64,000 nt of DNA, taken from the NCBI GenBank assembly GCA_016699875.1, contig CP064989.1, positions 85,380 through 149,379 on the forward strand. The letters run 5' to 3'. Position numbers and translations under genes: made by a program. A model generated the notes under the pieces. It saw only the letters and a list, made by a program, of their open reading frames with translations, did not search any database and had not been told where the DNA came from. Within the stretch, counting starts at the first letter, position 1. Every line of letters begins with the position of its first letter. The stretch is from Candidatus Moraniibacteriota bacterium. Lineage in GTDB: Bacteria; Patescibacteriota; Minisyncoccia; Moranbacterales; UBA1568. Positions 4,907 through 62,924 of the stretch are shown here, one piece after another.

Positions 4907-5632
4907 ATGACGGTACCTCCCACACACACACCATCAAAAAACTCTTCAACCGACACGGATTCCGTTTGGATTGTTGTTCCAGCATATAACGAAGCGTCTG
5001 TCATTGCTTCGGTCATCGAAGAAATACACCGCGCCGGATATCGAAACATCATAGTCGTAGACGATGGAAGTACCGACCAAACAAACGCTGTCGCTCAGTC
5101 ATGCGGAGTCATCACGCTCCGGCACCGTCTCAATCGCGGCAAAGGCGCTGCCACCAAGACCGGCATCGAAGCAGCAAAGCTTTTGGGCGCAAACAGTATT
5201 GTTACAATGGATGGCGACGGACAGCATGATCCGGCAGATATTGAGAAACTTCTATACCCTCTCCGACAAAGAGGAATTGACGTTTCCCTCGGATCACGTC
5301 TTCTTCACCCAAAGGGAATGCCTCTGTACAAGATTATTCAGAATCGTATTGGAAACCTGATTACCTGGTATCTCTTCGGGCTCTATGTTACCGACAGCCA
5401 ATCCGGGTTTCGCGCCTATTCCCGACGTGCTGCCGATCTGATCAATACCCGCTACGACCGCTACGAATATGAAAGTGAAGTTATTCGGGAAATATACCTG
5501 TACAGACTGCGTTATATCGAGCTCCCGATCGCTGTTCGCTACACTGCGTACTCGATAGGAAAAATCTCCAAACAGAACCTCGCAAACGGCGTAAAAACCG
5601 TATACAAAATGTTCTTCAAATTACTTACCTAA
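4907..5632 (+). CDS. Glycosyltransferase family 2 (polyprenyl-phosphate sugar synthase / DPM1-like)
   Basis: N-terminal VWIVVPAYNEASVI..IIVVDDGSTDQT GT-A motif. Size is 241 aa, typical of the ArnC/DPM1-like subfamily. Confidence 0.85.
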   Translation: MTVPPTHTPSKNSSTDTDSVWIVVPAYNEASVIASVIEEIHRAGYRNIIVVDDGSTDQTNAVAQSCGVITLRHRLNRGKGAATKTGIEAAKLLGANSIVTMDGDGQHDPADIEKLLYPLRQRGIDVSLGSRLLHPKGMPLYKIIQNRIGNLITWYLFGLYVTDSQSGFRAYSRRAADLINTRYDRYEYESEVIREIYLYRLRYIELPIAVRYTAYSIGKISKQNLANGVKTVYKMFFKLLT

Positions 5633-5643
5633 ACAATTCCTCT

Positions 5644-5991
5644 ATGACAATCCATCTCTATCAAATCATCGTCGCCGTCATTTCTGTGATCATGATTTAC
5701 CAAGGAACCATCCGCTACATCAGGAAAGAAAGCGGGCAGACGATTCTCAAGGTATTTGTTCGACTCAGCGTATGGGGAGGCATGATCGCTATAACGGTTT
5801 TCCCCAATCTTACCAATCTCATTGCCAACTTCGTTGGATTGCAGGGCAATATAAATGCCGTCATTCTCACTGGGTTTCTCCTCATCTTTCTCATGATATT
5901 CAAGCTCCTCTCAGCAATAGAACGTCTCGAACAGAACATCACGGAAGTTACCAGGAAAGAAGCCATTTCCGTCTTAAAAGAAAGACGATGA
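5644..5991 (+). CDS. Small membrane protein, DUF2304-like (GT2-associated)
   Basis: 115 aa with two to three TM helices. Positioned immediately after the GT2 gene as in GT2-DUF2304 pairs. Its stop overlaps the start of the next gene (ATGA). Confidence 0.5.
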   Translation: MTIHLYQIIVAVISVIMIYQGTIRYIRKESGQTILKVFVRLSVWGGMIAITVFPNLTNLIANFVGLQGNINAVILTGFLLIFLMIFKLLSAIERLEQNITEVTRKEAISVLKERR

Positions 5992-7154
5992 ACGCATCAG
6001 GAAAAACATCGTTTCTTATCTTTTCCCCCTACTATCCGCCGCATATCGGCGGACTGGAGTCTCACGCCGACGAATTCAACAAGCATCTCTCACAGCGTGG
6101 GGTAGATATCATTGTTTTCACTCCTCATATCCCGGTCTCCGCGCCGGAACGCGAAACCATTCATAACCATGTGGAAGTCATCCGATTTCCGGCCTTTGAA
6201 CTCATTCATAATTATCCCGTACCAAAACTGTGGTCTCCGAAATTCTGGATCCTATGGCGGGAACTTTTCCGTTCGGATACCGATATTATAATTTCCAGAA
6301 CCAGATTCTTTCTCACTTCGCTCATGGCGCTCATTTATGCGAAAACGCGAGGAAAAAAATGGATACACATCGAACACGGATCTGATTTCGTTCAACTCTC
6401 CAGCGCATTCAAGACATTTCTTGCCAAACTCTACGACCATATATTCGGACGGCTTGTATTTCGATATTCCGACAAAAATATCTCGATTTCAAAAGCCGTA
6501 CAGAACTTCGTCGGAAAATTCGACAAACGAATGTCCCCTGTCATTTACAGAGGGCTGGAAACACGAGCAATCGACGCGATCGCGCCGGACACCGAAGTTC
6601 GCGCTCGGCATCACGGAAAAGTAATTCTCACTTTCATCGGGAGACTCTACAAATGGAAAGGCGTGGCGGACAGCATAACGGCGATACGCTCCTTGCCCGA
6701 AGAGATAAAGAATAAAATCGTTTTCCTTATTGTCGGAGACGGCGAAGATTTCTCATCACTCAAAAAACTTTCCCAAAGTGAAAAATGCATCGAAATGCTT
6801 GGAAGCCTCCCAACGAAACACGCGATCGCGATACTCAAATCATCGGATATATATCTCCACTCTGCCCATCCGGGAGGAGGACTTTCCACATCGCTTCTCG
6901 AAGCAATATACTGTGGATGCACCGTTGTCGCCACACCACATGAGGGCGCGAATGAAGTCATACGGAACGGAGAGAACGGTATCCTTATGGAGGATTCTTC
7001 CCCTATCAGTGTAAAAGTGGCTATCGCTAGCCTTCTCGCTAATAGTAGCCATAACGATGTCTCCCTAAAAAATCAGGCACGACAAACAATTACTGAAAAA
7101 TTTTCTTGGAAAAAATCGATCGACGAATATGTAGACATATTCAAAGCACTATGA
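5988..7154 (+). CDS. Glycosyltransferase family 4
   Basis: Start chosen at MNASGKTSFLIFSPYYPPHIGGLESH (GT4 N-terminal motif). C-terminal EA..CG.PVVAT-like motif. The track ORF begins further upstream (5772) but overlaps the DUF2304 gene in another frame. Confidence 0.75.
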   Translation: MNASGKTSFLIFSPYYPPHIGGLESHADEFNKHLSQRGVDIIVFTPHIPVSAPERETIHNHVEVIRFPAFELIHNYPVPKLWSPKFWILWRELFRSDTDIIISRTRFFLTSLMALIYAKTRGKKWIHIEHGSDFVQLSSAFKTFLAKLYDHIFGRLVFRYSDKNISISKAVQNFVGKFDKRMSPVIYRGLETRAIDAIAPDTEVRARHHGKVILTFIGRLYKWKGVADSITAIRSLPEEIKNKIVFLIVGDGEDFSSLKKLSQSEKCIEMLGSLPTKHAIAILKSSDIYLHSAHPGGGLSTSLLEAIYCGCTVVATPHEGANEVIRNGENGILMEDSSPISVKVAIASLLANSSHNDVSLKNQARQTITEKFSWKKSIDEYVDIFKAL

Positions 7155-7999
7155 GCTTAAAACCATTCATAAAAGTACCCCTCGTTCTCGTAGAGAATAT
7201 TATTTTTTCATTTTTTCCTTCTTCAAGAAAATTTATTGAAAGAATTGTTTTCAATCCGTACTCTTTTGGATTTAACCACTTGGAATATGCCAAAAAACAA
7301 TTCGATTCATTTCTTCTCAAAATCTCACCAACGCAAGTCCGCGACAAGATTATTCTAGAGCTTGGCCCTGGCGGATCCGTAGGATTCGGTCTGCTCGCCC
7401 TAAAGAGCGGTGCGAAAAGATATTACGCCATTGAAAATGGCGACCACACGAAGATAGATTCAAAAATATTCAAGGCCTACAAGAAGCTCCTCAATAATAA
7501 TGTTCACCTCATCTCAGAATTCTTTACTAAAAATTTTCACTTTAATCGTAAAAAAATCTGTTTCATTGAGAATGATCAGATCTCCCCATACAACATATCG
7601 GATAATTCCATCGATATAATATACTCCTGCGCTGTACTTGAGCATGTTCACAACTTGGACTTTTGCTTCTCGGAAATGACGAGAGTCTTGAAAAACGGCG
7701 GTATTATGAATCACCAAGTGGATTTAAGGGACCATATCTTCTCACAAAGAAGTATTTGGTTCTTAAAGATAAGCGATAGAATATTCAATGCCCTATTTTC
7801 AAAAACCGGTGAATACGTCAATAGAAAACGCTTCAGTTATTATATAGACCTTATCCGGAAGAATAACCTGCAGATAGTAAACGTAGAGAAAAACATCCTC
7901 TTCAACGGAGAGCTCGATCAAAACTTACTCAAGCGTTACACGGAGGACGACCTCCGAACACTCTCGATGAATATCACCCTCAAAAAATCATGCGCCTAG
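7151..7999 (+). CDS. Class I SAM-dependent methyltransferase
   Basis: ILELGPGGSVGFGLLALKSGAKRYYAIE motif I (GxGxG). ATGA overlap with the upstream GT4 gene. Confidence 0.7.
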   Translation: MSLKPFIKVPLVLVENIIFSFFPSSRKFIERIVFNPYSFGFNHLEYAKKQFDSFLLKISPTQVRDKIILELGPGGSVGFGLLALKSGAKRYYAIENGDHTKIDSKIFKAYKKLLNNNVHLISEFFTKNFHFNRKKICFIENDQISPYNISDNSIDIIYSCAVLEHVHNLDFCFSEMTRVLKNGGIMNHQVDLRDHIFSQRSIWFLKISDRIFNALFSKTGEYVNRKRFSYYIDLIRKNNLQIVNVEKNILFNGELDQNLLKRYTEDDLRTLSMNITLKKSCA

Positions 8000-9282
8000 A
8001 AGTTGATTCGCTCAAGCCATGGGCAAAAAAAAGCAAATGGATCATCGTCGCTTCCATATTTTTTATCGTGTGGAAATTCTTCCTGATTGATATCGAATTA
8101 GGAAACGGACTCGATAATCCGCGCTTCAATGATGCCTCCGTGTATATAGCCCACATCGAGAGCATCAGAAACTGTCCCACAATTATATTCTGCAAATCGT
8201 TCATTGAATCATTTGATGGATATTTTGGATTTGAACATCTCACCTATCGTATTTTCTTCGGAACACTCGCGATCATCTCCGAAATCAGCTCGCATGAAAT
8301 GTTTATTCAGAGTTTCTATATAGGCATCGTCCTTTTCCTCCCGGTGCTCATATTATTCTTGAAACGACTGAATTCAAACACAGATCTCATCGCCTTTTCA
8401 ATCTTCTTCCTTGCTCTCTACAACGGAGCGGGATCATATCATGGATTTTTCTGGGTTGTTCCGAGTTTCTTTGCGCTTCTTCTCTTTTTACTTGTTTTCT
8501 CCGTATTCATAACAGAAAATGTCCGCCACTGGCGGCTATTTCTCACTATCCTTGTACCGTCGATGATTTATACGCATTTCATAGGGCTCTACTTTATCAT
8601 CGTCCTCATATTTTATTCTATATTTCATGGTATTTTTAAAGGAAAAATTGATATCCCACTCATAAGAAAGCTTGGGTTCATCATTCTTATCACTGCACTG
8701 TTCTATATTCCTACCGCTTTTCATCTGAAGGATAGCCCCTACGGTGGAAACTCCTATGGTGTAGAAACTTTTCTTAAACCAGTCATAAAAACAGCGGCAC
8801 ACTACATCAAAAATCAAAACCAGATAAACAACCCATCCCAAAAGATTGGCGAACAACATAACTCGTCAATTCTTCCCGGATTCGCACAAATCAAAACGGA
8901 TTATCTTGATTGGGTATTCCCGCATTGGACGGCCGTTCTGATTTTCTTCTTTCTCCTGTTTATTTTATTCTTTTATAAGCAGCATATCCTTCTTTCCCTG
9001 TTTTTTTCATCGCTTTCCTTCACCCTTCTTTCGTCGGTAAGCATATACGGGATAAGATCTCTTCTCCTAACTTGGCCACTAACATTCCTCATCTGCGCCC
9101 ATGGAACATGGTTTGTTTTTCGCTTCCTCAAAGACTCTATAAAGAATAGAAGTCTCCTCTGGCCGTCTTATTCCGTGGTATCTCTTTCTGTTATACTCTT
9201 CATAGTTGCCAACATAATTTACTCTTACTCGTGGAGTCACGGATCTGCAGTGAGTATCAAAGAAATAATAAGGAATCTCTAA
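7990..9282 (+). CDS. Polytopic integral membrane protein (possible GT-C glycosyltransferase or polymerase; function unassigned)
   Basis: 430 aa, roughly 10-12 hydrophobic helices. Lies inside the glycan cluster. Confidence 0.55.
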   Translation: MRLEVDSLKPWAKKSKWIIVASIFFIVWKFFLIDIELGNGLDNPRFNDASVYIAHIESIRNCPTIIFCKSFIESFDGYFGFEHLTYRIFFGTLAIISEISSHEMFIQSFYIGIVLFLPVLILFLKRLNSNTDLIAFSIFFLALYNGAGSYHGFFWVVPSFFALLLFLLVFSVFITENVRHWRLFLTILVPSMIYTHFIGLYFIIVLIFYSIFHGIFKGKIDIPLIRKLGFIILITALFYIPTAFHLKDSPYGGNSYGVETFLKPVIKTAAHYIKNQNQINNPSQKIGEQHNSSILPGFAQIKTDYLDWVFPHWTAVLIFFFLLFILFFYKQHILLSLFFSSLSFTLLSSVSIYGIRSLLLTWPLTFLICAHGTWFVFRFLKDSIKNRSLLWPSYSVVSLSVILFIVANIIYSYSWSHGSAVSIKEIIRNL

Positions 9283-9286
9283 ATTT

Positions 9287-11176
9287 ATGTGCGGTATTGC
9301 CGGAAAAATTTCCCTCACAAACAAAGAAATCTCGACTGTCGAAGTCGAGATGATGAACGAGGCTATCAAACACCGCGGCCCAGACGATGGAGGTGTATAC
9401 ATTTCACCAAATGCACGTGTCGGACTCGGCCACCGCAGACTTTCCATCATCGATCTCTCCCCGCTCGGGCACCAGCCGATGCGGTATATGGACCGCTATG
9501 AGATTGTCTTCAACGGCGAGATCTACAACTTCCAATCGGAACGGGATGCACTCGTCCGCGACGGATACACCTTCACCTCCCACTCAGACACGGAGGTCAT
9601 CATGGCACTCTACGACAAATACGGGAAAGACTGTCTCTCACATCTCCGCGGGATGTTCGCCTTCGCGATCTATGACGAGCAGAAACAAGTCCTCTTTGCC
9701 GCCCGGGATCGGGTCGGAAAGAAACCGTTCAAGTACTTCTTCGACGGAAGCGTGTTTCTCTTCGCATCCGAACTCAAGGCGATCCTGACGCAGCCGGAGT
9801 ACACACGAGAACCGGACTTCGAGGCAATCCACCACTATCTCACCCTCCAGTACGTCCCAGCCCCACTCACCGGCTTCAAGGGTATCAAGAAACTGGAACC
9901 GGCCCATTCTCTCTCACTCGATATGCGGACGAAGAAGATGGAGATCGAGCGGTACTGGAAACTCGACTACTCTAAGAAGTGGAATCTCTCTCCCGAAGAA
10001 TGGAAGAAACGGATCATCGACACGCTCGAGGAATCGACAAAACTCCGGATGATCTCCGATGTGCCGATCGGGGCGTTCCTCTCCGGCGGTGTGGATTCAA
10101 GTGCAGTCGTTGCTATGATGGCACGACATTCCGACAAACCGATCAAAACTTTTTCCATCGGATTCAAAGAGGAGAAATACAACGAACTCCCATATGCACG
10201 GATGATCGCTGACCGGTTCAAGACTGACCACACGGAGTTTATTGTGGAACCCCATGCGATCGAACTCCTTCCCATGCTCGTAAAACAGTATGAAGAGCCC
10301 TATGCCGACTCGAGCGCACTCCCGACCTACTACGTCTCCAAACTCACCCGTGAACACGTCGCTGTCGCGCTCAATGGTGATGGCGGTGACGAGAATTTCG
10401 GCGGATATGGCCGATACAGCGTACACAAGTTCGCGCTCGCCTACGACAAGCTCATGTTTCTTCACAAGACGCTTGCACTTCCAGCAACGACACTTGCCGC
10501 TAGATTCTTTAAAACAACCTTCCTCGACCGCACACACCGCTTCGCCGAGAGTCTCTCGAAACCCTATAACTACCGATATGTGAACTACATTTGTTATTTC
10601 ACGAACCAAATGAAAGACGAACTCTATACGGATGACTTTCGTAAGAAAATGAAACATTCGGATTCGTACCGCATCGTTGCTGATCGATTTGGCGAGTCCG
10701 GGAGCCTAAACAAGGTTGAACAGGCTGTCTACGCAGATTTCGCAACCTATCTCCCCGATGACCTTATGGTCAAAGTGGATATCGATACTATGGCTGTCGC
10801 TCTCGAAGGGCGCTCCCCATTTCTCGATCATGAATTTCTGGAACTTACCACTAAAATTCCGTTCGACCTGAAACTTAAAGGAAGAAACAACAAAAAATAT
10901 ATCCTGAAAGAAGCGCTTCGCGGCATCATCCCTGATGAGATCATGTTCCGTCCGAAGATGGGATTCGGTATCCCGATACACAAATGGTTCCGTGGCGAAC
11001 TAAAGGATTACGCCTACCAAACCCTTCTCTCAGAGAAGGCGATACAACGGGGAATTTTTAAGAAAGAAGTCATCAAGTCTCTGCTTGATAAACATTGCAC
11101 AACAAACATCGATTTCGGATATCATATCTGGGCACTCATAACCCTCGAACTCTGGTTCCAAGAATATTTCGACTGA
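9287..11176 (+). CDS. asnB: Asparagine synthase (glutamine-hydrolysing) family amidotransferase
   Basis: MCGIAG N-terminal nucleophile Cys2. Ntn glutaminase domain plus the SGGVDSS PP-loop of AsnB. Confidence 0.85.
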   Translation: MCGIAGKISLTNKEISTVEVEMMNEAIKHRGPDDGGVYISPNARVGLGHRRLSIIDLSPLGHQPMRYMDRYEIVFNGEIYNFQSERDALVRDGYTFTSHSDTEVIMALYDKYGKDCLSHLRGMFAFAIYDEQKQVLFAARDRVGKKPFKYFFDGSVFLFASELKAILTQPEYTREPDFEAIHHYLTLQYVPAPLTGFKGIKKLEPAHSLSLDMRTKKMEIERYWKLDYSKKWNLSPEEWKKRIIDTLEESTKLRMISDVPIGAFLSGGVDSSAVVAMMARHSDKPIKTFSIGFKEEKYNELPYARMIADRFKTDHTEFIVEPHAIELLPMLVKQYEEPYADSSALPTYYVSKLTREHVAVALNGDGGDENFGGYGRYSVHKFALAYDKLMFLHKTLALPATTLAARFFKTTFLDRTHRFAESLSKPYNYRYVNYICYFTNQMKDELYTDDFRKKMKHSDSYRIVADRFGESGSLNKVEQAVYADFATYLPDDLMVKVDIDTMAVALEGRSPFLDHEFLELTTKIPFDLKLKGRNNKKYILKEALRGIIPDEIMFRPKMGFGIPIHKWFRGELKDYAYQTLLSEKAIQRGIFKKEVIKSLLDKHCTTNIDFGYHIWALITLELWFQEYFD

Positions 11177-11288
11177 TTTTTTTCATTTGTCATCCCAGAC
11201 ATGATCCGGGATCCAGAAATCACAATCGATCTAGATTCCGATTCTGATGCCAGGATTACAGAGCAGAGAAATATCATCCACATTTTCT

Positions 11289-12413
11289 ATGCCCAAGAAA
11301 AGAATCATCCACCTCATCACGGGACTTGAAATAGGAGGAACGGAAATGATGCTCCTTAAAACTTTGCCAGGATTGCAAGGAGACTTTGACAACCGCGTCT
11401 GCTGTATTCGTGGTCACGGATCGATAGGGAAGCGACTTGAAAATGCCGGTGTTCCTGTCGTATATCTCGAACTGAAAAATATTTTTGATTTTGGTGCAAC
11501 TCTCCGTTTCCGTGGCATTATCAAAGAATTTCAACCAGATATCCTTGTCACCTATCTTATCCATGCCGATCTTCTTGGTCGCGTTTTCGGTCGGCTTTTC
11601 GGAATCAAAAAAATCATCTGCAATCAACGAGGAAAACTTCTCCAATGGGAGTTTCTTCGTTTCATTGATTATGCCACGAAATCATTGGTCACGAAATATA
11701 TAGTACAGACTAGCATTGCTCAACAGGAACTCATGAAAAAACTCCGCCTGCCTAAAGAAAGATTAGTAGTCATTCCAAACGCCATCGATACGGAAGAGTT
11801 CAACTTTGAAATGGATTGTGGCAAAAAACGAGCTGAATTCTCTCTGAAATCAGACGATATAGTCATCACCTGCGTGAGCAAACTTCGCCGTGGTAAAGGG
11901 CACAAATATCTCCTTGAAGCATTTGAATCACTTTCATTGCGAGGAAGTGAAACGACTGCAGCAATCCAGCCTTCCCACCTCAAGCTCCTCCTCGTCGGCG
12001 ACGGCGAGCAAAAAGAGGAACTTCTCGAGCAGGTCAAAAACTACACATCAAGGCCGAATATTCTCTTTCTTGGAAATCGTGGTGATATCAAAGAAATTCT
12101 GAAAATTTCTGCCATTTTTATACTCGCAACGGAAGGCGAAGGGATGTCCAATGCTATTATGGAGGCGATGGCCGCTGGGCTCCCCGTCATTACGACTAAC
12201 CTCCCGGAAAACCATGAACTCATTGAACACGGAAGCACCGGAATCCTTGTGCCTCCAAGAAATGCTAGCATGCTCGCTGAGGCGATGAACTTCCTTGTTG
12301 CTGATCCACACAAACAAAAAGCTCTCGGAAAAAACGCCAAGGGTGCAATTATGGAAAAATTCGACCTCAAAAAAATTGTCAGGCGACTTTCTCAATTCCT
12401 CGCAAGACTATAG
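11289..12413 (+). CDS. Glycosyltransferase family 4
   Basis: MPKKRIIHLITGLEIGGTE N-terminus. C-terminal EGEGMSNAIMEAMAAGLPVITT motif. An alternative upstream start lies at 11247. Confidence 0.75.
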   Translation: MPKKRIIHLITGLEIGGTEMMLLKTLPGLQGDFDNRVCCIRGHGSIGKRLENAGVPVVYLELKNIFDFGATLRFRGIIKEFQPDILVTYLIHADLLGRVFGRLFGIKKIICNQRGKLLQWEFLRFIDYATKSLVTKYIVQTSIAQQELMKKLRLPKERLVVIPNAIDTEEFNFEMDCGKKRAEFSLKSDDIVITCVSKLRRGKGHKYLLEAFESLSLRGSETTAAIQPSHLKLLLVGDGEQKEELLEQVKNYTSRPNILFLGNRGDIKEILKISAIFILATEGEGMSNAIMEAMAAGLPVITTNLPENHELIEHGSTGILVPPRNASMLAEAMNFLVADPHKQKALGKNAKGAIMEKFDLKKIVRRLSQFLARL

Positions 12414-15398: not shown

Positions 15399-15399
15399 A

Positions 15400-16491: not shown

Positions 16492-16499
16492 ACGCCATC

Positions 16500-17045: not shown

Positions 17046-18321
17046 TCTTACAAATATTTACATGAATCATTTTCCTTACATAAATAGCGGCCAAAACATA
17101 AATTAGAATTTGCGCAATCAAATATGCATACACGCTCCTGAAAAGGATAATCGAGCTTACCATGAAACTATAAATAACCAAGTTAATAAATGTCGCCCTT
17201 CCGATTTGATCGATATTTAATATCCCCATGAAAACAAAGAAAATTATATTCAAAAGTGATGCCAGGGAAAATAGAAGCATGAGTATCAATTGAAATGGGT
17301 ATTCGTTACCGAAAAACAAGAGAAATGTTGATCCACTCAAGACATTAAGAATGAACCAAAGAATGAAATACCTATAAAAAGCAACCTCCAATTTCTTAAC
17401 AATTGGTTTGAGATTCTCCTTATTTCTTATAACAACTGGCCAAAAGATATTCATGAAGACTATAGCGATCGTTGAGATAACTGTCTGCGATGAAGTGTAA
17501 TATGCACTATAGACTCCGAGCTCAGCGTTTCCTATATACTTACCAATAAAAACCTTGTCCGAGCTCAGAATGAGGCCGCTTACACCGGCAATTATCAAGA
17601 ATTTATTGTAATGTAGCAATAACACAACATCATCCCATGTAAAAAAAACAAGTCTTTTCCTCAAAAAATAAAGAGCCGCCACGATAAAGATCGTGGCGCC
17701 AGCCATAAGCGAAGCTACGTAATACAAATATGTGAATGTTTCCCGCGAAAGAAAATAAAAAGAGAAAAAGACGAGAATGACAAAAATTGAATCCAGAAAT
17801 TTCATCGCCGATTGCCTCTTGAAAAAACCGAGTGCTCTCAAGAATGAGTCAAATAATTCCCGAAAAGAAAATATGAGACCAAAGAAAAATATCAGGAGAA
17901 TTGAAGAATCACTTAAATCGAGTTTATCTCCCAAGAAACCCCTGAAAGCGTAAACGAAAACGAAGAAGACGGCTGCCTGAATGAGCGTTAAAAATATGGA
18001 CGCACTTAGTAGCGCCTCTTTTTTCTCTTTGTATTTTTGATCTGAGACAAATCGTGTACCACTCGAATTATTCCCTAAGAGAAAAAAGAAGGTTGACGAC
18101 GTCGCAAGAGAGAGGAAGTAATTATATTCGCCATAACCAACCGGACCAAGAATCCTTCCGGCTGATATGTTTGTTACGAATAAAAGTCCGGAAGTGAGAA
18201 CACCCAAAAAAAACGAGAAGGAAAGGTTCTCTAAAAAGAGCTTCATTTCATCGCTCATGGCATGATGAAATATCTTTTCATGCAGTTTTTCAGCAAAAAC
18301 TTTCACTTTCTCTCTAAGCAT
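17038..18321 (-). CDS. Polysaccharide biosynthesis protein / Wzx-like oligosaccharide flippase (MOP superfamily)
   Basis: About 12 TM helices. Start placed at internal MLREKV (18321) because the longer ORF would overlap fcl. Confidence 0.65.
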   Translation of the reverse strand: MLREKVKVFAEKLHEKIFHHAMSDEMKLFLENLSFSFFLGVLTSGLLFVTNISAGRILGPVGYGEYNYFLSLATSSTFFFLLGNNSSGTRFVSDQKYKEKKEALLSASIFLTLIQAAVFFVFVYAFRGFLGDKLDLSDSSILLIFFFGLIFSFRELFDSFLRALGFFKRQSAMKFLDSIFVILVFFSFYFLSRETFTYLYYVASLMAGATIFIVAALYFLRKRLVFFTWDDVVLLLHYNKFLIIAGVSGLILSSDKVFIGKYIGNAELGVYSAYYTSSQTVISTIAIVFMNIFWPVVIRNKENLKPIVKKLEVAFYRYFILWFILNVLSGSTFLLFFGNEYPFQLILMLLFSLASLLNIIFFVFMGILNIDQIGRATFINLVIYSFMVSSIILFRSVYAYLIAQILIYVLAAIYVRKMIHVNICKNV

Positions 18322-18340
18322 AAAAAATAAGGGGGTGCAT

Positions 18341-19282
18341 TTACGAAACTTTCCTCGCATCATCGAGAAACCAATCATACGTCGTCCTGATTCCGTCCAG
18401 AAGAGCGATCGAATGCATCCATCCGAGGGAACGCAACCTGGTAACATCGAGCCACTTTCTCGGCGTCCCATCCGGTTTTCTGGTATCCCAGATGATCTCA
18501 CCTTCAAATCCGATCACCGATCGAATTGTTTCCGCGAGTTCCTGTATCGTCACATCTTCTCCCGTTCCAATGTTCACTATTTCCGATCCGTTGTAATGAT
18601 CCATAAGAAAGACCGCTGCATCCGCAAGATCATCCACATGGAGAAATTCCCGTTTCGGCGAACCCGTTCCCCACAACGTCACCGTCTTCGCACCGGAGAC
18701 CTTCGCTTCATGAAATTTCCGAATCATCGCCGGAAGCACATGCGACGTTTCAATGTCGAAATTGTCGTTTGGACCATAAAGATTTGTTGGCATAACGGAG
18801 ATAAAATTCGTGCCATACTGATCATTGAAACTTTGGCACATTTTAATTCCCGCGATCTTTGCAGTAGCATAAGCATCATTTGTTTCTTCAAGAGGACCCG
18901 TCATGAGATATTCTTCCCTAATCGGTTGCGGGCAAAGCTTCGGGTAAATACAGGAACTTCCAAGAAAGAGGAGTTTTGTCACACCGTTTTTCCATGCACT
19001 ATGGACGATATTGTTTTGTATCTGCAAGTTTTCATAGATGAAGTCCGCCTTTTCTTTTTTGTTCGCAAGAATACCGCCAACTTTGGCGGCGGCCAAAAAG
19101 ACATATTCTGGCTTCCCCCTCTCAAAGAACGCCTCGACATCCGACTGACGAAGCAAATCCAATTCCTCCCTTGTCTTTAAAAGAAGATTGCCATACCCTT
19201 TCGCGAGCAGTCTTCGCACGATTGCCGATCCAACCAACCCTCGATGCCCAGCAACGTATATTTTCGATTGTTTCTGCATCAT
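18341..19282 (-). CDS. fcl: GDP-L-fucose synthase
   Basis: KIYVAGHRGLVGSAIVRRL Rossmann N-terminus and overall Fcl-like sequence. Confidence 0.85.
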   Translation of the reverse strand: MMQKQSKIYVAGHRGLVGSAIVRRLLAKGYGNLLLKTREELDLLRQSDVEAFFERGKPEYVFLAAAKVGGILANKKEKADFIYENLQIQNNIVHSAWKNGVTKLLFLGSSCIYPKLCPQPIREEYLMTGPLEETNDAYATAKIAGIKMCQSFNDQYGTNFISVMPTNLYGPNDNFDIETSHVLPAMIRKFHEAKVSGAKTVTLWGTGSPKREFLHVDDLADAAVFLMDHYNGSEIVNIGTGEDVTIQELAETIRSVIGFEGEIIWDTRKPDGTPRKWLDVTRLRSLGWMHSIALLDGIRTTYDWFLDDARKVS

Positions 19283-19312
19283 AACGATGAGTCCATGGTC
19301 ATTATTTCTACT

Positions 19313-20353
19313 TTATTTTATCAGACGCTGCACAGCTGCAAAATCGGCATCCGTCATCAATTTCACAAGCTCGCGAAACTTCGTTTTCGGCTCCCACCCG
19401 AGCTCTTTTTTTGCTTTGGATGGATCACCGATAAGCATATCCACTTCCGCCGGACGAAAATACCTCGGATCGATTCGGATGATCGTTTTCCCCGTCTTCA
19501 CATCCTTTCCTTCTTCGTTCATGCCACTTCCTTCCCAAGCGATCTTGATACTAAGTATCGCCGCAACCTCCTCGATAAATTCCCTAACTGTATGCATTTC
19601 ATTGGTCGCAAGAACATAATCATCCGGTCTATCACCTTGTAATATCTTCCACATCCCTTCCACATAATCCTTAGCGTATCCCCAATCTCGCTTTGCGTCG
19701 ATATTCCCGAGATAGAGCATATCTTCCAGTCCGCATACGATACGGGAAAGTCCTCGGGTTATCTTCCGTGTCACAAACGTCTCGCCGCGTCGAGGCGATT
19801 CGTGATTGAAGAGGATACCGTTGCAGGCGAACATCCCATAACTTTCCCGATAATTCTTCGTAATCCAGTACCCATATACCTTCGAGCAAGCGTAGGGAGA
19901 TCGTGGATAAAAAGGCGTCTTTTCGGTTTGCGGAACCTCCGACACCTTTCCGAACATTTCGGAGCTCGACGCTTGATAGAACTTCGCGCATATTCCAGAA
20001 TCCTTTATCGCATCCAAAATCCTGACTGTTCCAAGCGCGTCGATATCCCCCGTATATTCCGGTATATCAAAACTCACCCGAACATGACTCTGCGCACCAA
20101 GATGATATATTTCATCCGGACGAATTTTCCCGATAAGCCTCGAAATACTGCCTCCATCAGAAAGATCACCGTAATGCAGAAACAGCCGAACATCGTTTAT
20201 ATGCGGATCCTGATAGAGATGATCGATGCGTTCCGTGTTGAAGGTTGAGGCTCTGCGAATCATTCCATGCACTTCATAACCCTTCTCCAAAAGCAATTCG
20301 GAAAGATACGATCCATCCTGTCCAGTTATGCCAGTAATAAAAGCTTTTTTCAT
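19313..20353 (-). CDS. gmd: GDP-mannose 4,6-dehydratase
   Basis: [30 protein letters not shown] is nearly identical to the canonical Gmd N-terminus. The start may be 18 nt upstream (20371). Confidence 0.9.
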
Positions 20354-20466
20354 ATATTTTGTAGTAACCATAGAATCCTAAACAACTCCCCTACTTCAAC
20401 CTTCAACGAGACCTCCTTGGAATCGCATCAGAAGTGCCATTTTAAAGCATTCATAGTATACTCTCA

Positions 20467-21969
20467 TTGAAGATTTTCCAAAAGACAAAGACGTCTGCTC
20501 CATGTAGAGAGCGCATGAATATTACTCAACATCCCCTATTTCTCATTTCCCTCCTTCTTGCCGCCTTTTTTTTCAAAGGCGTGTTTTTGGTGGCGCTTTT
20601 CCCGATATTCACCGGGCAAGACGAAGCAAGACACTACAACACACTTCAATACTTCAATCAACCGAAAATACCCAACGAAAAGATGACTCACCGTCCTTAC
20701 ATTCAAAACAAAGAAGACTTTTCCGACTACAATTTCTCCGAAGAAATCATCAATACCGGAAAAGCGGCCGGCATTGATGATTTGCGGCACGGGCTTTTTG
20801 ATACGCAGCCATTCGTCTCGGAAAGCTTTGACGGTCCGAATGAATCGAGTATCACTCAAAAAACATGGAAACCATATAACTTCACTGCACCCGCCGACAT
20901 TGCCGGAACCGGAAGTTTCTACCATAAAGTTGCGAGCGAAATCGAGTCAGCACTTTCTCAACACGATATTCTCGTTCGATTCTACGCAATTCGCATTTTC
21001 TCAGTATTTCTTGGAACCATAGCCGTATTGCTCGCCTTCCTCATTGCGAGAGCGCTCCGATTCGACTTATTCACAAGCACCCTCTTTGCCGCACTCGTCG
21101 CTTTCCAACCGAAGTTCTCCATGTACATGACCAATATCAACTACGACGCCCTCCTCATCCCATCGTTTTTCCTCTTTACCTGGGGAGGGGTCTTGAGTCT
21201 CCAAAAAGGACTTAACTGGAAGAGCTTCATCGTGATGCTGACAGCAGTGGCAATCGGACTCCTCACCAAGGGAACCGCTATTGTTCTACTCGCGGCATTT
21301 CTTGGCATTATCGTTTTTCACATTCTTGCTCTGGCAAGGCGCACCTTCAATGCCACCACTACTATAAAAAGCGTAGGGGTGGCACTCTTCGTTATCGTCG
21401 GTATATTCATACTCTCCAGCGGACGATACCACTACACAACACTCATTCCTGTCGGAGATTCACTATCAATCACCATCAGCTCCTTGGAAAGCTACCTCGA
21501 CAAAAGCCTCACATTCGGGAGATTTGCACTTTCGTCACGTACCTATTGGGGCACGCTCGGATGGAACGACGACTTCTTGGCAAATCATCTCACAGATATA
21601 CTCTCACGAGTCGAAGGAATTGCCGCGCTTGGCCTCGTGCTCTTTCTCTTCACTAAAAACAAGCCTGATTTCCTTCCGGAGAAATGCTCGGTTATATTTC
21701 TTATTGCCATGATCTTGGCACTTCAACTTGGTATTCGAGCCGCAGACTGGAACATATTTGCCCATACCGGGTCGCTCGTTCTCGGCACGCCAGGCAGATA
21801 CTTCCTCCCTAATTTGGCAACACACATCATACTTGTCTTCATTGGGCTCGGTATGCTTCTCGGAACCCGCGAACGATTTAAGAACGTGCTTATCGGCGGA
21901 GTTATCCTGATGTGTTTCTTCTCAATATTTCTCACGCTTGATACGATTCTTCCACGATTCTATCTCTAA
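20467..21969 (+). CDS. GT-C fold membrane glycosyltransferase (ArnT/PMT-like)
   Basis: Polytopic, with a DEARHY motif in the first extracytoplasmic loop. This is the GT-C DE signature of the ArnT/PMT families. Confidence 0.55.
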   Translation: MKIFQKTKTSAPCRERMNITQHPLFLISLLLAAFFFKGVFLVALFPIFTGQDEARHYNTLQYFNQPKIPNEKMTHRPYIQNKEDFSDYNFSEEIINTGKAAGIDDLRHGLFDTQPFVSESFDGPNESSITQKTWKPYNFTAPADIAGTGSFYHKVASEIESALSQHDILVRFYAIRIFSVFLGTIAVLLAFLIARALRFDLFTSTLFAALVAFQPKFSMYMTNINYDALLIPSFFLFTWGGVLSLQKGLNWKSFIVMLTAVAIGLLTKGTAIVLLAAFLGIIVFHILALARRTFNATTTIKSVGVALFVIVGIFILSSGRYHYTTLIPVGDSLSITISSLESYLDKSLTFGRFALSSRTYWGTLGWNDDFLANHLTDILSRVEGIAALGLVLFLFTKNKPDFLPEKCSVIFLIAMILALQLGIRAADWNIFAHTGSLVLGTPGRYFLPNLATHIILVFIGLGMLLGTRERFKNVLIGGVILMCFFSIFLTLDTILPRFYL

Positions 21970-21977
21970 TATCCGCT

Positions 21978-22679: not shown

Positions 22680-22729
22680 AAACTGCCTACGCCTTCTCTT
22701 GGTAGCTCGAAAATACTTTCGGGAAACGC

Positions 22730-23680
22730 TTACACCCTGTAATACTCCCGGTACCATTCAACAAAGTTTTTGATGCCTACATCGATACGCGTCGTCGGTT
22801 CCCATCCGAGCGCGCGCAGTTTTGAAATATCCGCAACTGTCGCCGGGACATCGCCCGGCTGCATGGGCATCATCTTCTTCTCAGCTGTCTTCCCGATATT
22901 CTCTTCGATAACCTCGATAAATCGTGTCAATTTTTCTTCAGCATCACCGCCAATATTCATAACACCTGTCGGCAAATCAGCATCTAATACCCTTATCGTT
23001 CCAGAAACGATATCGTCGATATAGGTAAAGTTTCTCGTCATATTCCCGAAATTGTACACTTCTATCGGCTTTCCTTCAAAAATATTTTTTGTGAAACTAA
23101 AAAGGGCCATATCAGGCCGTCCCCACGGACCGTACACCGTGAAGAACCGAAGCCCGGTCGTCGGGAGCTTATACAGATGGCTCCACACGTGAGCAAAGAG
23201 CTCATTTGCTTTTTTACTCGCGGCATACGGAGAAACCGGAGCATCAACAGAATCGCTTTCAGCAAATGGTACTTTTTCATTCCCGCCATAAACGGATGAT
23301 GACGATGCATACACAAAATTCTTTGCATCATGTTTTCGCGCCGCCTCAAGCAATACAAGCGTGCCGTTCACATTCACATCCGCATACAGAAGCGGGTCCT
23401 GTATAGAATATCGAACACCCGCCATTGCCGCCAAGTGGACCACTTTCTCTATCTTCTCCTCTTCAAAAATGCTCTCAACTAGTTTCGCATCGCGGATATC
23501 GCCCTCGTACAACTTGAAATCAACACCCTTCAAAAAAATAGCGATACGATCCCGCTTGAGTTGCGGATCGTAATAATCATTGAAGTTATCAAGAATCACT
23601 ACTCGATCACCGCGCTCCACTAAGCGCTTCGTCACTGCTGACCCGATAAATCCAGCACCTCCGGTCACAAGAATATTCAT
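22730..23680 (-). CDS. NAD-dependent sugar-nucleotide epimerase (UDP-glucuronate/UDP-glucose 4-epimerase-like)
   Basis: MNILVTGGAGFIGSAV Rossmann motif and YxxxK region of extended SDRs. Confidence 0.8.
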   Translation of the reverse strand: MNILVTGGAGFIGSAVTKRLVERGDRVVILDNFNDYYDPQLKRDRIAIFLKGVDFKLYEGDIRDAKLVESIFEEEKIEKVVHLAAMAGVRYSIQDPLLYADVNVNGTLVLLEAARKHDAKNFVYASSSSVYGGNEKVPFAESDSVDAPVSPYAASKKANELFAHVWSHLYKLPTTGLRFFTVYGPWGRPDMALFSFTKNIFEGKPIEVYNFGNMTRNFTYIDDIVSGTIRVLDADLPTGVMNIGGDAEEKLTRFIEVIEENIGKTAEKKMMPMQPGDVPATVADISKLRALGWEPTTRIDVGIKNFVEWYREYYRV

Positions 23681-23731
23681 ACAGAGAGAATTAGGTATTA
23701 CGAAGAAATAAGGAGTCGAGAAAACACGCTA

Positions 23732-25003
23732 TCAAGAATGCGGGATTCTCGCTTTCAGGAAGAGGCTGTACTCGCCGTCAGGATCACTATTTGTCGTATA
23801 GCACCGAAGAGCAGTCTCTCGAGCCCTCTCCCCCATCTTCCTCCGAAAATCACCATCAGAAATAAGCTGTGATGCTTTTTTATACCAGTCTTCTTCATTC
23901 ACGGCAATATACCCATCTTCACCATCACGTATTGCCTCTTGAAAAGTTTGCGTCGCCGTAGCGATCGTTGATACGCCGACAATGCCCGCTTCAAAGAATT
24001 TCAGTTCGCTCTTCGCCTCACAAAACGGATCGCCGACTTCCAAAGGCGCAATATTGATATCGACGCTTGCAATATTCCGAAAATTCTCAGCACGCGGAAC
24101 ATAAGAAACATGATCAATACGAGTAGTGTACGGTTCGAGCACGCTAGGAAGACTGAGCGGTCCGCCAATAAAGATTCGAAGATACTCAAACTCATCCAGA
24201 AGCCGCTTCAAAACAGATGAAACTGTGTCGAAATCCCGATCATGCCCCGTTGACCCGCTAAAATAGCCGATGGTAACAGGAGCAGGAAATGGAAGGTGGG
24301 AGATAGAAGATGAAACGACACTGTCTGACTCCTTATTTCTCATTCTTAATTCCACATCCCGCATTCTTAATTCTTCTGTATCCTTTTTTCTTGTCTCAAG
24401 AATCGCCTCTGCGATTGTGACATCTTCACAACTCAGGCGATTCGGCACGACAAACACTGGCTTCCCAAAAACACGAAGCCTCTCCGCAAGAAATTCCGTA
24501 CTCGTTGTTACTCCTGAAATAGCCGAGCTCTTCAGAAATTCAGCGCCGATACCGTTTTGATACTGCTTTCTTTCAAATGCATTCATCGCCTCATAGGCAG
24601 CTGTTTGTTTGAAAAGTGCCACGTCAAAAGTAAGATCATCCGTATCAAATATCACAGTCTTTTTCAAAGATTCCAACTGTCGGATAAATGCATCCACAGA
24701 TGACGTCCACGACGTCCGGTGAAATACAAACACCGAAAACTTCTCGGCAAATCGTGAAAGACGAAGGGTGTCCTGCTGAATCACTCCTGCTCGGAAGCCC
24801 TGCAAACGAAGAGATTCCGCAACATGCGCACAACGATAGCGCGCACTATCGCCAACACCGCTCGCTATAAAGAGAACATCTCCGGAGTCAGCCCGACGAA
24901 ACAGTGTCGGTATTGAAGAAACGATCCTCCGACTCCCATTCACAATTCCGTCTCGCCGAAATACCGACCACGCTTTTCCAAGTTGTACAAGAAGTCGTTC
25001 CAT
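23732..25003 (-). CDS. Glycosyltransferase (GT4-like)
   Basis: C-terminal E..FFEAGIVG..TIATATQTFQEAIRDGEDGYI resembles the GT4 EX7E region. Confidence 0.65.
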   Translation of the reverse strand: MERLLVQLGKAWSVFRRDGIVNGSRRIVSSIPTLFRRADSGDVLFIASGVGDSARYRCAHVAESLRLQGFRAGVIQQDTLRLSRFAEKFSVFVFHRTSWTSSVDAFIRQLESLKKTVIFDTDDLTFDVALFKQTAAYEAMNAFERKQYQNGIGAEFLKSSAISGVTTSTEFLAERLRVFGKPVFVVPNRLSCEDVTIAEAILETRKKDTEELRMRDVELRMRNKESDSVVSSSISHLPFPAPVTIGYFSGSTGHDRDFDTVSSVLKRLLDEFEYLRIFIGGPLSLPSVLEPYTTRIDHVSYVPRAENFRNIASVDINIAPLEVGDPFCEAKSELKFFEAGIVGVSTIATATQTFQEAIRDGEDGYIAVNEEDWYKKASQLISDGDFRRKMGERARETALRCYTTNSDPDGEYSLFLKARIPHS

Positions 25004-31431: not shown

Positions 31432-31439
31432 ATAAAGAC

Positions 31440-40821: not shown

Positions 40822-40833
40822 ACGCGAAAAGTA

Positions 40834-43215: not shown

Positions 43216-43276
43216 GATTGTGAGATAAGGAAGATCCTGAAAACCAAATACAAAGTAAGAAACAGCCTTTCTTGTG

Positions 43277-45180: not shown

Positions 45181-45252
45181 ACTTCAGTACAGCACGCTGC
45201 AATATTGAAAATGATACGCATTCACACCGACACTTCCGCTCCGCAACACATG

Positions 45253-61666: not shown

Positions 61667-61675
61667 ATTTGTGAT

Positions 61676-62923: not shown

Positions 62924-62924
62924 A

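Follow-up and report, generated by a model that had tools for sequence, protein, structure and literature searches.

The interval from position 4907 to 25003 of the window (the whole stretch of DNA that was analysed, 64 kb from the approximately 1.09-Mb genome of a Candidatus Moraniibacteriota (CPR/Patescibacteria) bacterium) is an unbroken series of 19 glycan genes. We read it, with a probability of about 0.6, as the main cell-surface glycoconjugate locus, in which a conserved scaffold and a swappable cassette make a lipid-linked glycan via four steps; a methylated, fucose-containing, and probably uronic-acid-containing lipid-linked glycan is the best reading of the product. The first-pass annotation had described a single functionally coherent surface-glycan locus, which is borne out by the ORF map, by Pfam and NCBIfam profile searches, and by the recurrence of the gene order in L060, the corresponding locus of an independent relative. 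Besides one GT2, four GT4, and two CgeB-like paralogues, the locus encodes three SAM methyltransferases, a Wzx-like flippase, Gmd, Fcl, a UDP-glucuronate-4-epimerase-like SDR, and a WbpS-like AsnB amidotransferase, and a run of 19 adjacent genes of this kind is far beyond chance. The number of GT-A/GT-B glycosyltransferases is five (one GT2 and four GT4) rather than the six claimed earlier, whereas the two CgeB-like enzymes stand. Three polytopic membrane proteins had also been listed, two of which turn out to be GT-C enzymes, and the total therefore rises to nine glycosyltransferases. The start codons of several genes were reassigned. A cell-surface sugar-polymer cluster of this kind is real and of a fairly ordinary type; what is less ordinary is the combination of a fixed scaffold with an exchangeable sugar cassette, and the presence of a membrane glycosyltransferase family for which no database has a matching entry.

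Synteny comparison shows that related genomes retain the order GT2-DUF2304-GT4-(membrane protein)-AsnB-GT4. The scaffold opens with a soluble GT2 of 241 residues (4907..5632, + strand; PF00535, 88.7 bits), for which TM prediction gives no segment and which is 57-70% identical to its counterparts in most Moranbacteria loci. Its NCBIfam matches are NF058614 (PpgS, the best, at 153 bits against a cut-off of 370) and TIGR04182 (AglJ, 108 against 325), so that by sequence it resembles polyprenyl-phosphate-sugar synthases of the PpgS/AglJ/Dpm1 kind at scores far under the equivalog cut-offs. In nearly all relatives the GT2 gene is followed by one for a small DUF2304 membrane protein with three TM segments (5644..5991, +; PF10066, 57.2 bits against a cut-off of 25.5), which had been missed; it lies in the 5' part of a 460-aa ORF that was evidently read as a single glycosyltransferase. 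The module of PpgS-like GT2, DUF2304 protein, and GT-C enzyme was accordingly absent from the earlier reading, and its presence alters the mechanism. GT4a (5988..7154, +; PF00534, PF13439) starts within the stop codon of the DUF2304 gene (ATGA overlap), and GT4b (11247..12413, +; PF00534), which scores 181.8 bits, under the cut-off, against TIGR03088 (stp2), is the conserved partner of AsnB, a GT4 coming after AsnB in most fetched loci. Immediately to the left, and ending 5 nt before GT2, is a gene for a 1125-aa GH94 phosphorylase-like protein (1524..4901, +) with the Pfam GH94 supersandwich and catalytic domains; in the PDB it matches cyclic beta-1,2-glucan synthase best, in the C-terminal GH94 domain of that enzyme (574 bits). 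This gene precedes GT2 in L005 too (59% identity), but not in most other relatives, and is a possible accessory member at the left edge of the locus.

The part exchanged among relatives is the low-GC minus-strand cassette, which here carries fucose genes, CgeB-like enzymes, and methyltransferases. Its genes have a GC content of 0.36-0.44, compared to 0.50-0.55 for housekeeping genes, and their identity with L060 is a mosaic. The fucose genes had been proposed from the start, and both hold up: Gmd (19313..20371, -), which bears the same name at NCBI, exceeds the TIGR01472 equivalog cut-off (559.7 bits against 415), and Fcl, a GDP-L-fucose synthase (18341..19282, -), matches NF047922 over its full length with 493.5 bits against a cut-off of 500. 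The CgeB-like glycosyltransferases (14286..15398, -, PF13524, 83.7 bits; and 15400..16491, -, PF13524, 83.4 bits) are paralogues with 39% identity; the search for NCBIfam or PDB relatives of the first was unsuccessful, and the second has an 88% identical counterpart in L060. The Wzx-like MOP-family flippase (17038..18258, -; 406 aa, multi-TM; PF01943, 78.6 bits; GC 0.36) has had its start reset from the L060 homologue, and GT4c (12392..13510, -; PF00534, PF13439; GC 0.41), a GT-B enzyme and the last gene of the cassette, is just 40% identical to its L060 equivalent. In L001, Gmd, Fcl, the CgeB-like genes, and the methyltransferases are replaced by Glf, a GT4, and a methyltransferase. The block from GT4c to Gmd is the strain-variable part, and surface specificity, perhaps that towards phages or the host cell, is probably determined by it.

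All three methyltransferases are class I SAM enzymes. MT1 (7151..7999, +; 282 aa; PF08241), to which NCBIfam and PDB searches assign no specific family, adjoins a GT-C gene in L003, L013, L026, and L059-63 as well; MT2 (13507..14289, -; 260 aa; PF13649, PF08241; GC 0.39), with weak and generic PDB matches, is missing from L060 and is therefore an extra gene here; and the short MT3 (16500..17045, -; 181 aa; PF08241), also without a specific family in profile and PDB searches, is 91% identical to its L060 counterpart at an unchanged position. Had they proved to be rRNA, tRNA, or small-molecule methyltransferases, the first-pass reading would have been refuted, but this objection does not succeed: none of the three reaches the cut-off of such a family in profile searches, and MT1 and MT3 keep their positions within the locus in relatives. 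Three such genes had been called unusual, but this is not very much so given that L060 has two and the L001 cassette one.

In the pathway that we propose, Gmd and Fcl supply GDP-L-fucose, as is shown at the level of their families, and the SDR probably interconverts UDP-GlcA and UDP-GalA. The four GT4 and two CgeB-like enzymes may then assemble an oligosaccharide on polyprenyl at the cytoplasmic face, where the three methyltransferases would methylate the glycan or its nucleotide-sugar precursors and the AsnB paralogue would convert a uronic acid carboxyl to the amide, as WbpS/WbqG do; the methyltransferases, which are soluble SAM enzymes, and AsnB, which depends on ATP and glutamine, must both act in the cytoplasm. 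Uronamide and O-methyl-fucose as constituents of the product are what we infer from these assignments. The Wzx-like MOP protein would next flip either this glycan on its lipid or a donor that is lipid-linked. For the final steps we draw on gene order and domain fusions as well as on fold and family resemblance: the PpgS/Dpm1-like GT2 could, with DUF2304, charge polyprenyl phosphate with a monosaccharide, and the GT-C enzyme Mem430 and its PMT_2-like counterpart, the latter paired with the protein P233, might use lipid-linked donors outside the membrane, either decorating the glycan or joining it to its final acceptor.

The amidation step depends on how the 629-aa AsnB-family glutamine amidotransferase (9287..11176, +; PF00733, GATase_7; N-terminus MCGIAG) is interpreted. 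An earlier suggestion that it is WbpS-like holds in so far as TIGR03108 (eps_aminotran_1) is the closest model, matched over the full length with 614.7 bits, and a uronate-epimerase-like SDR is present in the locus, but the score is under the curated cut-off of 816.9. That SDR (22730..23680, -; PF01370) has 5u4q as its best PDB match (350 bits), scores 168 bits against the B. cereus UDP-GlcA 4-epimerase (6zl6), and contains a RFFTVYGPWGRPDMA motif, which is typical of the UDP-glucuronate 4-epimerase family; it is most likely such an epimerase. LtsA and AsnB1 amidate peptidoglycan stem peptides in Gram-positive bacteria, and it is conceivable, if somewhat unlikely, that the AsnB paralogue is an enzyme of that type, or the asparagine synthetase of the cell, that only happens to be located here. 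Its score against the generic asparagine-synthase model TIGR01536 (496.9 bits) does pass the cut-off (267), NCBI names it asparagine synthase, its identity of 62-87% across Moranbacteria makes it the best-conserved gene of the locus, as might be expected of a housekeeping function, and Ugd is not found in the window. Models of the E. coli AsnB type score far lower, however (289 bits, and 147 bits for 1ct9), glycosyltransferases are always on its flanks, and the relatives in Bacteroidota (40-47% identity) precede a GT4b-like gene, with Gmd also present in L031 and L052. Moreover, the EPS-type TIGR03108 family is the best model by more than 100 bits, and it includes WbpS and WbqG, with loss of a member abolishing uronamide formation (PMC7468200).

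A second alternative, which we regard as unlikely, is a classical Wzx/Wzy capsule or secondary cell-wall polysaccharide, to which the GT-C enzymes add only side-branch sugars, with the repeat unit made by this locus and the genes for the initiating transferase, Wzy, chain-length regulator, and LCP-type ligase in other parts of the genome. The Wzx-type flippase and many cytoplasmic glycosyltransferases of the locus fit such a scheme, as do a TagA/WecG-like linkage-unit transferase 3 kb away and the low GC and cassette swapping typical of such loci. Profile searches (Pfam/NCBIfam) of the window, however, reveal no Wzy, Wzz/PCP, ABC transporter, or initiating phosphoglycosyltransferase, and no ManB/ManC or acceptor-attachment enzyme (LCP, ligase). 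Only Mem430, Wzx, the PMT_2 GT-C enzyme, and MurJ have at least eight TM segments in the window, and none of these four is Wzy-like; nor is a Wzy-like gene present within 10 kb in the syntenic relatives L001, L020, and L060. The classical model is therefore not supported here, and an oligosaccharide or short decorated chain is likelier than a long Wzy-made polymer. Moraniibacteriota, as CPR bacteria, are not known to have LPS, for which reason an O-antigen, one of the products first envisaged, is inapplicable.

A further reading in which the two GT-C enzymes figure is protein glycosylation. Mem430 (7990..9282, +; 430 aa, polytopic, GT-C fold) represents an unannotated, Pfam-less, and apparently CPR-restricted family with an invariant acidic residue (D48) immediately past TM1 and two near-invariant cysteines in that loop. 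Its distant relatives are fused to GT2 or to CBM_11/ConA-like lectin domains, which ties the family to donors made by GT2 enzymes and to extracytoplasmic carbohydrate, and many related loci have another, unrelated polytopic protein at this position. The multi-TM PMT_2/ArnT-like enzyme (20467..21969, +; PF13231, 39.6 bits against a cut-off of 26.1; PF02366, 31.2 bits) has the sequence QDE immediately past TM1; its homologues adjoin Wzx in L001 and L020, and its conserved partner is P233 (21978..22679, +), a membrane-anchored beta-sandwich (jelly-roll, CBM-like) protein. In this reading, which we regard as distinctly improbable, a polyprenyl-phosphate sugar would serve PMT-type O-glycosylation of surface proteins (those of an S-layer, pilins, or others), or else Mem430 would be a minimal oligosaccharyltransferase that transfers a Wzx-flipped oligosaccharide en bloc. 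En-bloc transfer would have a parallel in the archaeal Agl pathway, with its GT2 AglJ, flippase AglR, GT-C enzyme AglS, methyltransferase AglP, and AglB. Neither the periplasmic domain nor the WWDYG motif of AglB is found in Mem430, the OST-fold protein of the window.

By orientation, the locus comprises four transcription units (plus 4907-12413, minus 12392-20371, plus 20467-22679, and minus 22730-25003), with switches at about 12.4, 20.4, and 22.7 kb and overlapping or closely packed genes within each; terminator-like hairpins are seen only at the convergent GT4b/GT4c junction, one of them at 12436-12455. An M23 peptidase gene and gltX belong to the same minus-strand series as the epimerase and GT4d (23732..25003, -; a divergent GT-B enzyme of 423 aa with weak PF13524, PF13692, and PF00534 matches over the C-terminal half), and these two are therefore tied to the locus by function only. 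Although a single operon is thus not what we find, the genes are not thereby unrelated, and it is very improbable that these switches, hairpins, and shared strand reflect four independent neighbouring units, such as a protein O-mannosylation pair, a fucose cassette, and a housekeeping operon, given that 19 of 19 genes have a glycan-related or membrane-glycan assignment and that the multi-unit layout is repeated in L060, L001, and L020.

Among known systems, PpgS/Rv3632/Rv3779, by which Mycobacterium and Corynebacterium modify arabinogalactan with galactosamine, has the same arrangement: the gene of a soluble polyprenyl-phosphate-charging GT2 comes directly before one for a small integral membrane protein, and the lipid-linked sugar is used outside by a GT-C transferase (PMC3485146, PMC9671496). 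PpgS is also the best NCBIfam match of the GT2 described here. Rv3632 is presumably a DUF2304 protein. The present locus differs in the low PpgS score of its GT2, in having the module within 20 kb of DNA that also carries Wzx, GT4s, methyltransferases, and AsnB, and in its two GT-C enzymes, one of an unannotated family. In three-component extracytoplasmic glycosylation, likewise, a lipid-phosphate-sugar synthase and a flippase work together with a GT-C enzyme to modify an already exported glycan (PMC11127046). The GtrA/GtrB/GtrC, CsbB/GtcA/YfhO, and GT136-founding pentofuranose systems share this logic with our GT2 and GT-C enzymes, and the flippase for the donor can there be one of the MOP/MATE type, a part that Wzx might play in the locus; here, however, DUF2304 takes the place of a GtrA-family protein, and GT2 is without the C-terminal TM helices of GtrB. 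For the AsnB-GT4b pair, the comparison is with the WbpS/WbqG O-antigen loci (P. aeruginosa O6, E. coli O121), uronamide formation requiring WbqG and PGN_1234 (PMC7468200), and with XrtA/PEP-CTERM EPS loci, in which a TIGR03108 amidotransferase accompanies a TIGR03088 glycosyltransferase. An eps_aminotran_1-type AsnB paralogue of about 630 residues beside a GT4 with stp2 as best match is common to all, but AsnB and GT4b are here under the curated cut-offs and the host is without LPS; exosortase or PEP-CTERM proteins were not seen in the window. The S-layer N-glycosylation cluster of Haloferax volcanii (Agl) is likewise not known to include Wzy or a classical phosphoglycosyltransferase. Although its host is archaeal rather than bacterial and Mem430 differs from AglB as described above, the two clusters have in common an AglJ-like GT2, soluble glycosyltransferases, a sugar methyltransferase, a Wzx-like flippase, a PMT_2-like GT-C enzyme, and an OST-fold GT-C enzyme.

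The ORF map and the Pfam/NCBIfam scans place an unbroken run of 19 glycan-related genes at positions 4907-25003, and thereby confirm the surface-glycan locus proposed in the first-pass annotation, which was largely correct. Its gene list was also essentially right, except that five rather than six GT-A/GT-B glycosyltransferases are counted and that a small DUF2304 gene had been overlooked. As judged by orientation, the locus comprises four transcription units. The first (4907-12413, +) encodes a GT2 glycosyltransferase, the DUF2304 protein, the GT-B glycosyltransferase GT4a, the SAM methyltransferase MT1, a 430-aa membrane protein, an AsnB paralogue, and GT4b, while the second (20371-12392, -) encodes Gmd, Fcl, Wzx, MT3, CgeB-like 2, CgeB-like 1, MT2, and GT4c. 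The third unit (20467-22679, +) consists of genes for a PMT_2-type membrane protein and a 233-aa protein, and the fourth (25003-22730, -), encoding GT4d and an SDR epimerase, is the end of a run that includes an M23 peptidase, gltX, and a TagA/WecG-GNAT fusion. Genes inside each unit overlap by 4-10 nt or are separated by gaps of 1-83 nt, and start codons were reassigned for GT4a (to 5988), MT1 (7151), Wzx (18258), and the M23 peptidase (26304). Terminator-like hairpins that make positional sense are seen only at the convergent GT4b/GT4c junction (12436-12455, +, and 12341-12324, -), in a scan that is mildly enriched relative to shuffled sequence (28 versus 18.4 ± 4.4). The promoter scan of the window gives no excess over shuffled sequence (32 versus 35.3 ± 5.7).

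Family assignments give the locus a GDP-L-fucose pathway (Gmd and Fcl) and nine glycosyltransferases distributed over three fold classes. Also encoded are a MOP flippase, three SAM methyltransferases, and one amidotransferase of the AsnB type. We assign a probability of about 0.6 to a composite picture in which the locus makes a lipid-linked glycan. The GT4 and CgeB-like enzymes would build a lipid-linked oligosaccharide in the cytoplasm from sugars that include fucose and probably a uronic acid (galacturonic or glucuronic). This intermediate would acquire its methyl and amide groups before flipping, given that the methyltransferases and AsnB are soluble enzymes dependent on SAM, ATP, and glutamine. 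Wzx would then flip the modified oligosaccharide, and the GT2/DUF2304 pair would supply a polyprenyl-phosphate monosaccharide for use outside the membrane by one or both of the GT-C enzymes, either in decorating the glycan or in attaching it to an acceptor. We are far less confident of any particular sugar structure, O-methyl-fucose and a uronamide included.

The precursor enzymes can be assigned with differing precision. Gmd has an equivalog-level NCBIfam match (559.7 bits against a cut-off of 415), and Fcl is matched over its full length at 493.5 bits, marginally under the cut-off of 500. The SDR epimerase (22730-23680) is most similar in the PDB to 5u4q (350 bits), scores 168 bits against Bacillus cereus UDP-glucuronate 4-epimerase, and contains a RFFTVYGPWGRPDMA motif, which is typical of UDP-GlcA 4-epimerases. 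The AsnB paralogue begins with MCGIAG, providing the Cys nucleophile, and has GATase_7 and PF00733 domains, as in amidotransferases of the WbpS/WbqG type. The first-pass assignment to this type is upheld in that TIGR03108 (eps_aminotran_1) is the best-scoring family and is qualified in that the score of 614.7 bits lies below the curated cut-off of 816.9, despite an end-to-end alignment (protein residues 1-625, model positions 1-626 of 628). Members of the TIGR03108 family include WbpS from P. aeruginosa, WbqG from E. coli O121, and PGN_1234 from P. gingivalis, and the uronamide form of the sugar is no longer made when either WbqG or PGN_1234 is lost (PMC7468200). A search of E. coli genomes for O121 wbqG by DNA similarity gave no match, and a search of plasmid proteins yielded only relatives with ≤43% identity, named asparagine synthase or XrtA amidotransferase. 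Independently of the other alternatives considered here, AsnB might be a housekeeping or peptidoglycan-amidating enzyme, as its sub-threshold family score would allow; we regard this as unlikely, the similarity to E. coli-type AsnB being much lower (289 bits to the NCBIfam model and 147 bits to 1ct9). The adjoining gene, GT4b, is best matched by TIGR03088, a glycosyltransferase family of the XrtA system, and a GT4b-like gene is found a few kb downstream of AsnB in most of the loci fetched from other genomes, including many from Bacteroidota.

The remaining modification and transfer enzymes are more generic. MT1-MT3 are class I SAM enzymes, and profile searches against specific rRNA, tRNA, and small-molecule methyltransferase families in NCBIfam, functions that might have removed them from glycan synthesis, gave nothing above or even near a cut-off; the best matches are to BioC (25 bits, cut-off 185), UbiG (33, cut-off 103), RrmJ (19, cut-off 300), and ArsM (26, cut-off 400). 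PDB sequence searches with MT1-MT3 and CgeB-like 1 returned nothing specific, the methyltransferase matches being weak and generic. The number of methyltransferases, initially called unusual, is at most a mild curiosity, as two are encoded in the nearest relative and a single one in another, serotype-like cassette. CgeB-like 1 and 2 are tandem paralogues (39% identical) with no relative of solved structure; they match PF13524 (Glyco_trans_1_2) with 83.7 and 83.4 bits (cut-off 25), and Wzx matches PF01943, of the MOP family, at 78.6 bits (cut-off 28.2).

Several functions of a complete polymer pathway were not found in the 64-kb window. There is no Pfam or NCBIfam match to a Wzy polymerase, and the polytopic proteins other than Wzx have a GT-C fold or are MurJ. 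No initiating phosphoglycosyltransferase of the WecA/WbaP/PglC/MraY type is present among the scanned ORFs of the window, and a chain-length regulator, an LCP ligase, an ABC transporter, UDP-glucose dehydrogenase, and ManB/ManC were likewise not found there. The presence of Wzx is what would be expected were the product a classical Wzx/Wzy polymer with the absent genes located elsewhere in the genome, a reading that we consider doubtful; the lack of Wzy makes a short decorated chain or an oligosaccharide more likely than a long polymer of repeats.

Two candidate GT-C enzymes are encoded in the window. The first (20467-21969) is a 500-aa protein that matches PMT_2 and PMT and has a "QDE" motif directly after the first TM helix. 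The second (7990-9282, +) is the 430-aa protein, which has no match whatever in Pfam or NCBIfam. A word-indexed search of 5.8 billion proteins identified 83 relatives, of which all that are named are hypothetical and all named hosts are Moranbacteria or Parcubacteria, and a profile search of 1.84 billion representatives expanded the family to 224 members. An AlphaFold model computed with a 48-sequence alignment is confident (pLDDT 89.8, pTM 0.89). Asp-48, directly after TM1 and usually part of a "DD" pair, is invariant and shares its loop with two near-invariant cysteines; Arg-356, His-151, and a G-x-G-x-x-H-G-F-F-W-V-V-P-S-F block are also invariant or nearly so. This pattern is the one expected for an outward-facing GT-C active site. 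In distant members of the family, an N-terminal GT2 domain precedes the GT-C domain (P0183), or CBM_11 or ConA-like lectin domains follow it at the C-terminus (P0217 and P0225). These fusions connect the family with donors made by GT2 enzymes and with carbohydrate outside the cytoplasm. We also considered, and rejected, an oligosaccharyltransferase of the STT3/AglB/PglB type, because there is no periplasmic domain, the protein ending after the TM domain at 430 aa, and no WWDYG motif, W[WFY]D[YWF]G being present in 0/48 aligned members.

An alternative that we judge to be improbable is that the locus serves protein glycosylation, either PMT-like or by en bloc transfer through the new GT-C in a manner resembling the archaeal Agl pathway. 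Yet more speculative, and in our view very unlikely, is the idea that Moranbacteria, and perhaps other Parcubacteria, have a lipid-linked-oligosaccharide pathway of archaeal/eukaryotic style. The AglJ/PpgS-like GT2 may start the glycan on polyprenyl monophosphate, so that a phosphoglycosyltransferase is not needed; extension, methylation, and amidation may proceed in the cytoplasm, followed by flipping by Wzx; and the wall or surface proteins may then receive the glycan en bloc from the Pfam-less GT-C, which would act as a minimal oligosaccharyltransferase without the usual periplasmic domain. If true, the variable cassette would set the host or phage specificity of the episymbiont.

Comparison with the related loci reveals a conserved core, GT2-DUF2304-GT4a-(polytopic membrane protein)-AsnB-GT4b, across Moranbacteria. 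The membrane-protein slot is occupied by a 430-560-aa member of the GT-C family, often preceded by MT1, in loci L003, L004, L008, L013, L016, L026, and L059-63, or, instead, by a larger protein (690-800 aa, 13-17 TM segments) that is unrelated and Pfam-less (L001, 7853-9916; L005, 6696-8792; L007, 7929-9989; L018, 6340-8742; L020, 6686-8827; L024, 6542-8737). The larger proteins were rejected as distant homologues of the 430-aa GT-C (none found by HMM search; hhalign probability 3%), and have no match in Pfam or the PDB; a conserved "PLPDxDPYYW" stretch in them hints at a further unrecognised GT-C-like family. Upstream of the core, a stand-alone 1125-aa GH94 protein (1524-4901, +) is encoded 5 nt before the GT2 gene, its best solved relative being the C-terminal phosphorylase domain of cyclic beta-1,2-glucan synthase (574 bits), and a GH94 gene (59% identity) likewise lies upstream of GT2 in L005. 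The protein might degrade, trim, or contribute to making a glucan.

The minus-strand block from GT4c to Gmd is the variable part of the locus. L060 has the gene order of the window without MT2 and is a mosaic, with high identities for MT3 (91%), CgeB-like 2 (88%), Wzx (86%), AsnB (86%), Fcl (80%), and Gmd (78%) and low ones for GT4a (57%), CgeB-like 1 (56%), GT4b (51%), and GT4c (40%). L001, the AsnB of which is 87% identical, has UDP-galactopyranose mutase, a GT4, and a different methyltransferase in the cassette position, and then Wzx, a PMT-like GT-C, and a homologue of the 233-aa protein in the same relative order as in the window, an AAA-ATPase gene being inserted between the last two. 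That the four units are merely unrelated neighbouring operons, as their alternating orientation might allow, is highly improbable given this shared gene order. GC content is 0.36-0.44 in the cassette genes versus 0.50-0.55 in neighbouring housekeeping genes. Conserved flanks around a variable centre are also the layout of O-antigen and capsule loci in other bacteria, and speak for diversifying selection acting on the surface glycan. A conserved scaffold with a swappable low-GC cassette suggests a glycan under diversifying pressure, from phages or through host recognition.

The host is a CPR/Patescibacteria bacterium with a genome of ~1.09 Mb (1,088,644 bp), and relatives of AsnB in species-representative genomes (62-87% identity) come almost entirely from Candidatus Moraniibacteriota/Moranbacteria MAGs. 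This taxonomy rules out O-antigen, one of the products suggested at first. NCBI entries QQS15829 (AsnB), QQS15839 (locus tag IPK84_00525), and QQS15843 (GltX) all belong to one contig of a Candidatus Moraniibacteriota MAG and are identical to window proteins. The counterpart of Gmd on that contig, QQS15837, shares its 90% cluster but is annotated with six fewer residues. Elsewhere, the window contains the housekeeping genes gltX, dnaJ, lepA, murJ, and glyA, together with ribosomal-protein and rpoA genes as read from translations; scans of the window for tRNAs and for Rfam families gave no hits. GC skew on the + strand is strongly and evenly negative throughout (-0.09 to -0.25 in 2-kb windows) independently of gene orientation, indicating an unusually strong replication-strand bias, and the G-rich minus strand carries most genes from 12.4 kb on. 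A second envelope cluster (39157-46137, -) encodes MurJ, an 854-aa DUF4012 protein, a GT4, a GalU-like UTP-glucose-1-phosphate uridylyltransferase (311 bits, cut-off 326.8), and a Pfam-less ORF with three predicted TM segments. Located 3 kb from the glycan locus, a 400-aa ORF (27910-29112, -) joins a WecG/TagA/CpsF glycosyltransferase domain to a C-terminal GNAT acetyltransferase, which suggests a linkage-unit type step somewhere in envelope synthesis. There are two M23 peptidases, one of 805 aa with a CARDB domain (54656-57073, -) and one with a long coiled-coil before the M23 domain (25015-26304, -); the latter gene is immediately downstream of the glycan genes and belongs to the minus-strand run containing gltX. 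Two restriction-modification systems are also present, one (31033-34194, -) composed of Vsr, a BbrUII/HgiDII-like HATPase restriction enzyme with a C-terminal Hypoth_Ymh domain, and a Dcm methylase, and the other (58015-63914, -) of type I, with HsdR followed by three more ORFs (226, 415, and 329 aa).

Gene clusters for polysaccharides or glycoconjugates are, as a class, ordinary, and the locus is otherwise routine for general glycobiology. Bacteria of the CPR/Patescibacteria are ultra-small and for the most part uncultured, their presumed lifestyle is one of attachment to other cells, and to our knowledge almost nothing is known of their surface chemistry. Small as this genome is, ~20 kb, or roughly 2% of it, is devoted to one glycan locus. 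What is added to the first-pass annotation is the CPR host, the architecture of conserved core and variable cassette, and a GT-C family, small and unannotated, that comes with a PpgS-like donor module and a CBM-like partner protein. Unrecognised by Pfam and NCBIfam, this family of 224 representatives could be annotated across CPR genomes, as could the CBM-like, membrane-anchored partner of the PMT-type enzyme (233 aa; 21978-22679, +).

The PpgS-like donor module was absent from the initial reading of the genes. The GT2 protein (241 aa) has a PF00535 domain and no predicted TM segment, and its best NCBIfam matches are PpgS, a polyprenyl-phospho-GalNAc synthase (153 bits, cut-off 370), and archaeal AglJ (108 bits, cut-off 325). 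Encoded 11 nt downstream, the DUF2304 protein (PF10066, 57.2 bits) has three TM segments, and the pair is retained in nearly all of the Moranbacteria loci fetched. In mycobacteria and corynebacteria, PpgS is partnered by the adjacent small membrane protein Rv3632, and the GT-C enzyme Rv3779 moves the PpgS-made sugar onto arabinogalactan outside the membrane (PMC3485146, PMC9671496). The locus resembles PpgS/Rv3632/Rv3779- or Gtr-type systems in two respects: the small membrane partner beside the synthase is matched here by DUF2304, and a GT-C-fold transferase with an acidic motif in its first outside loop is present.
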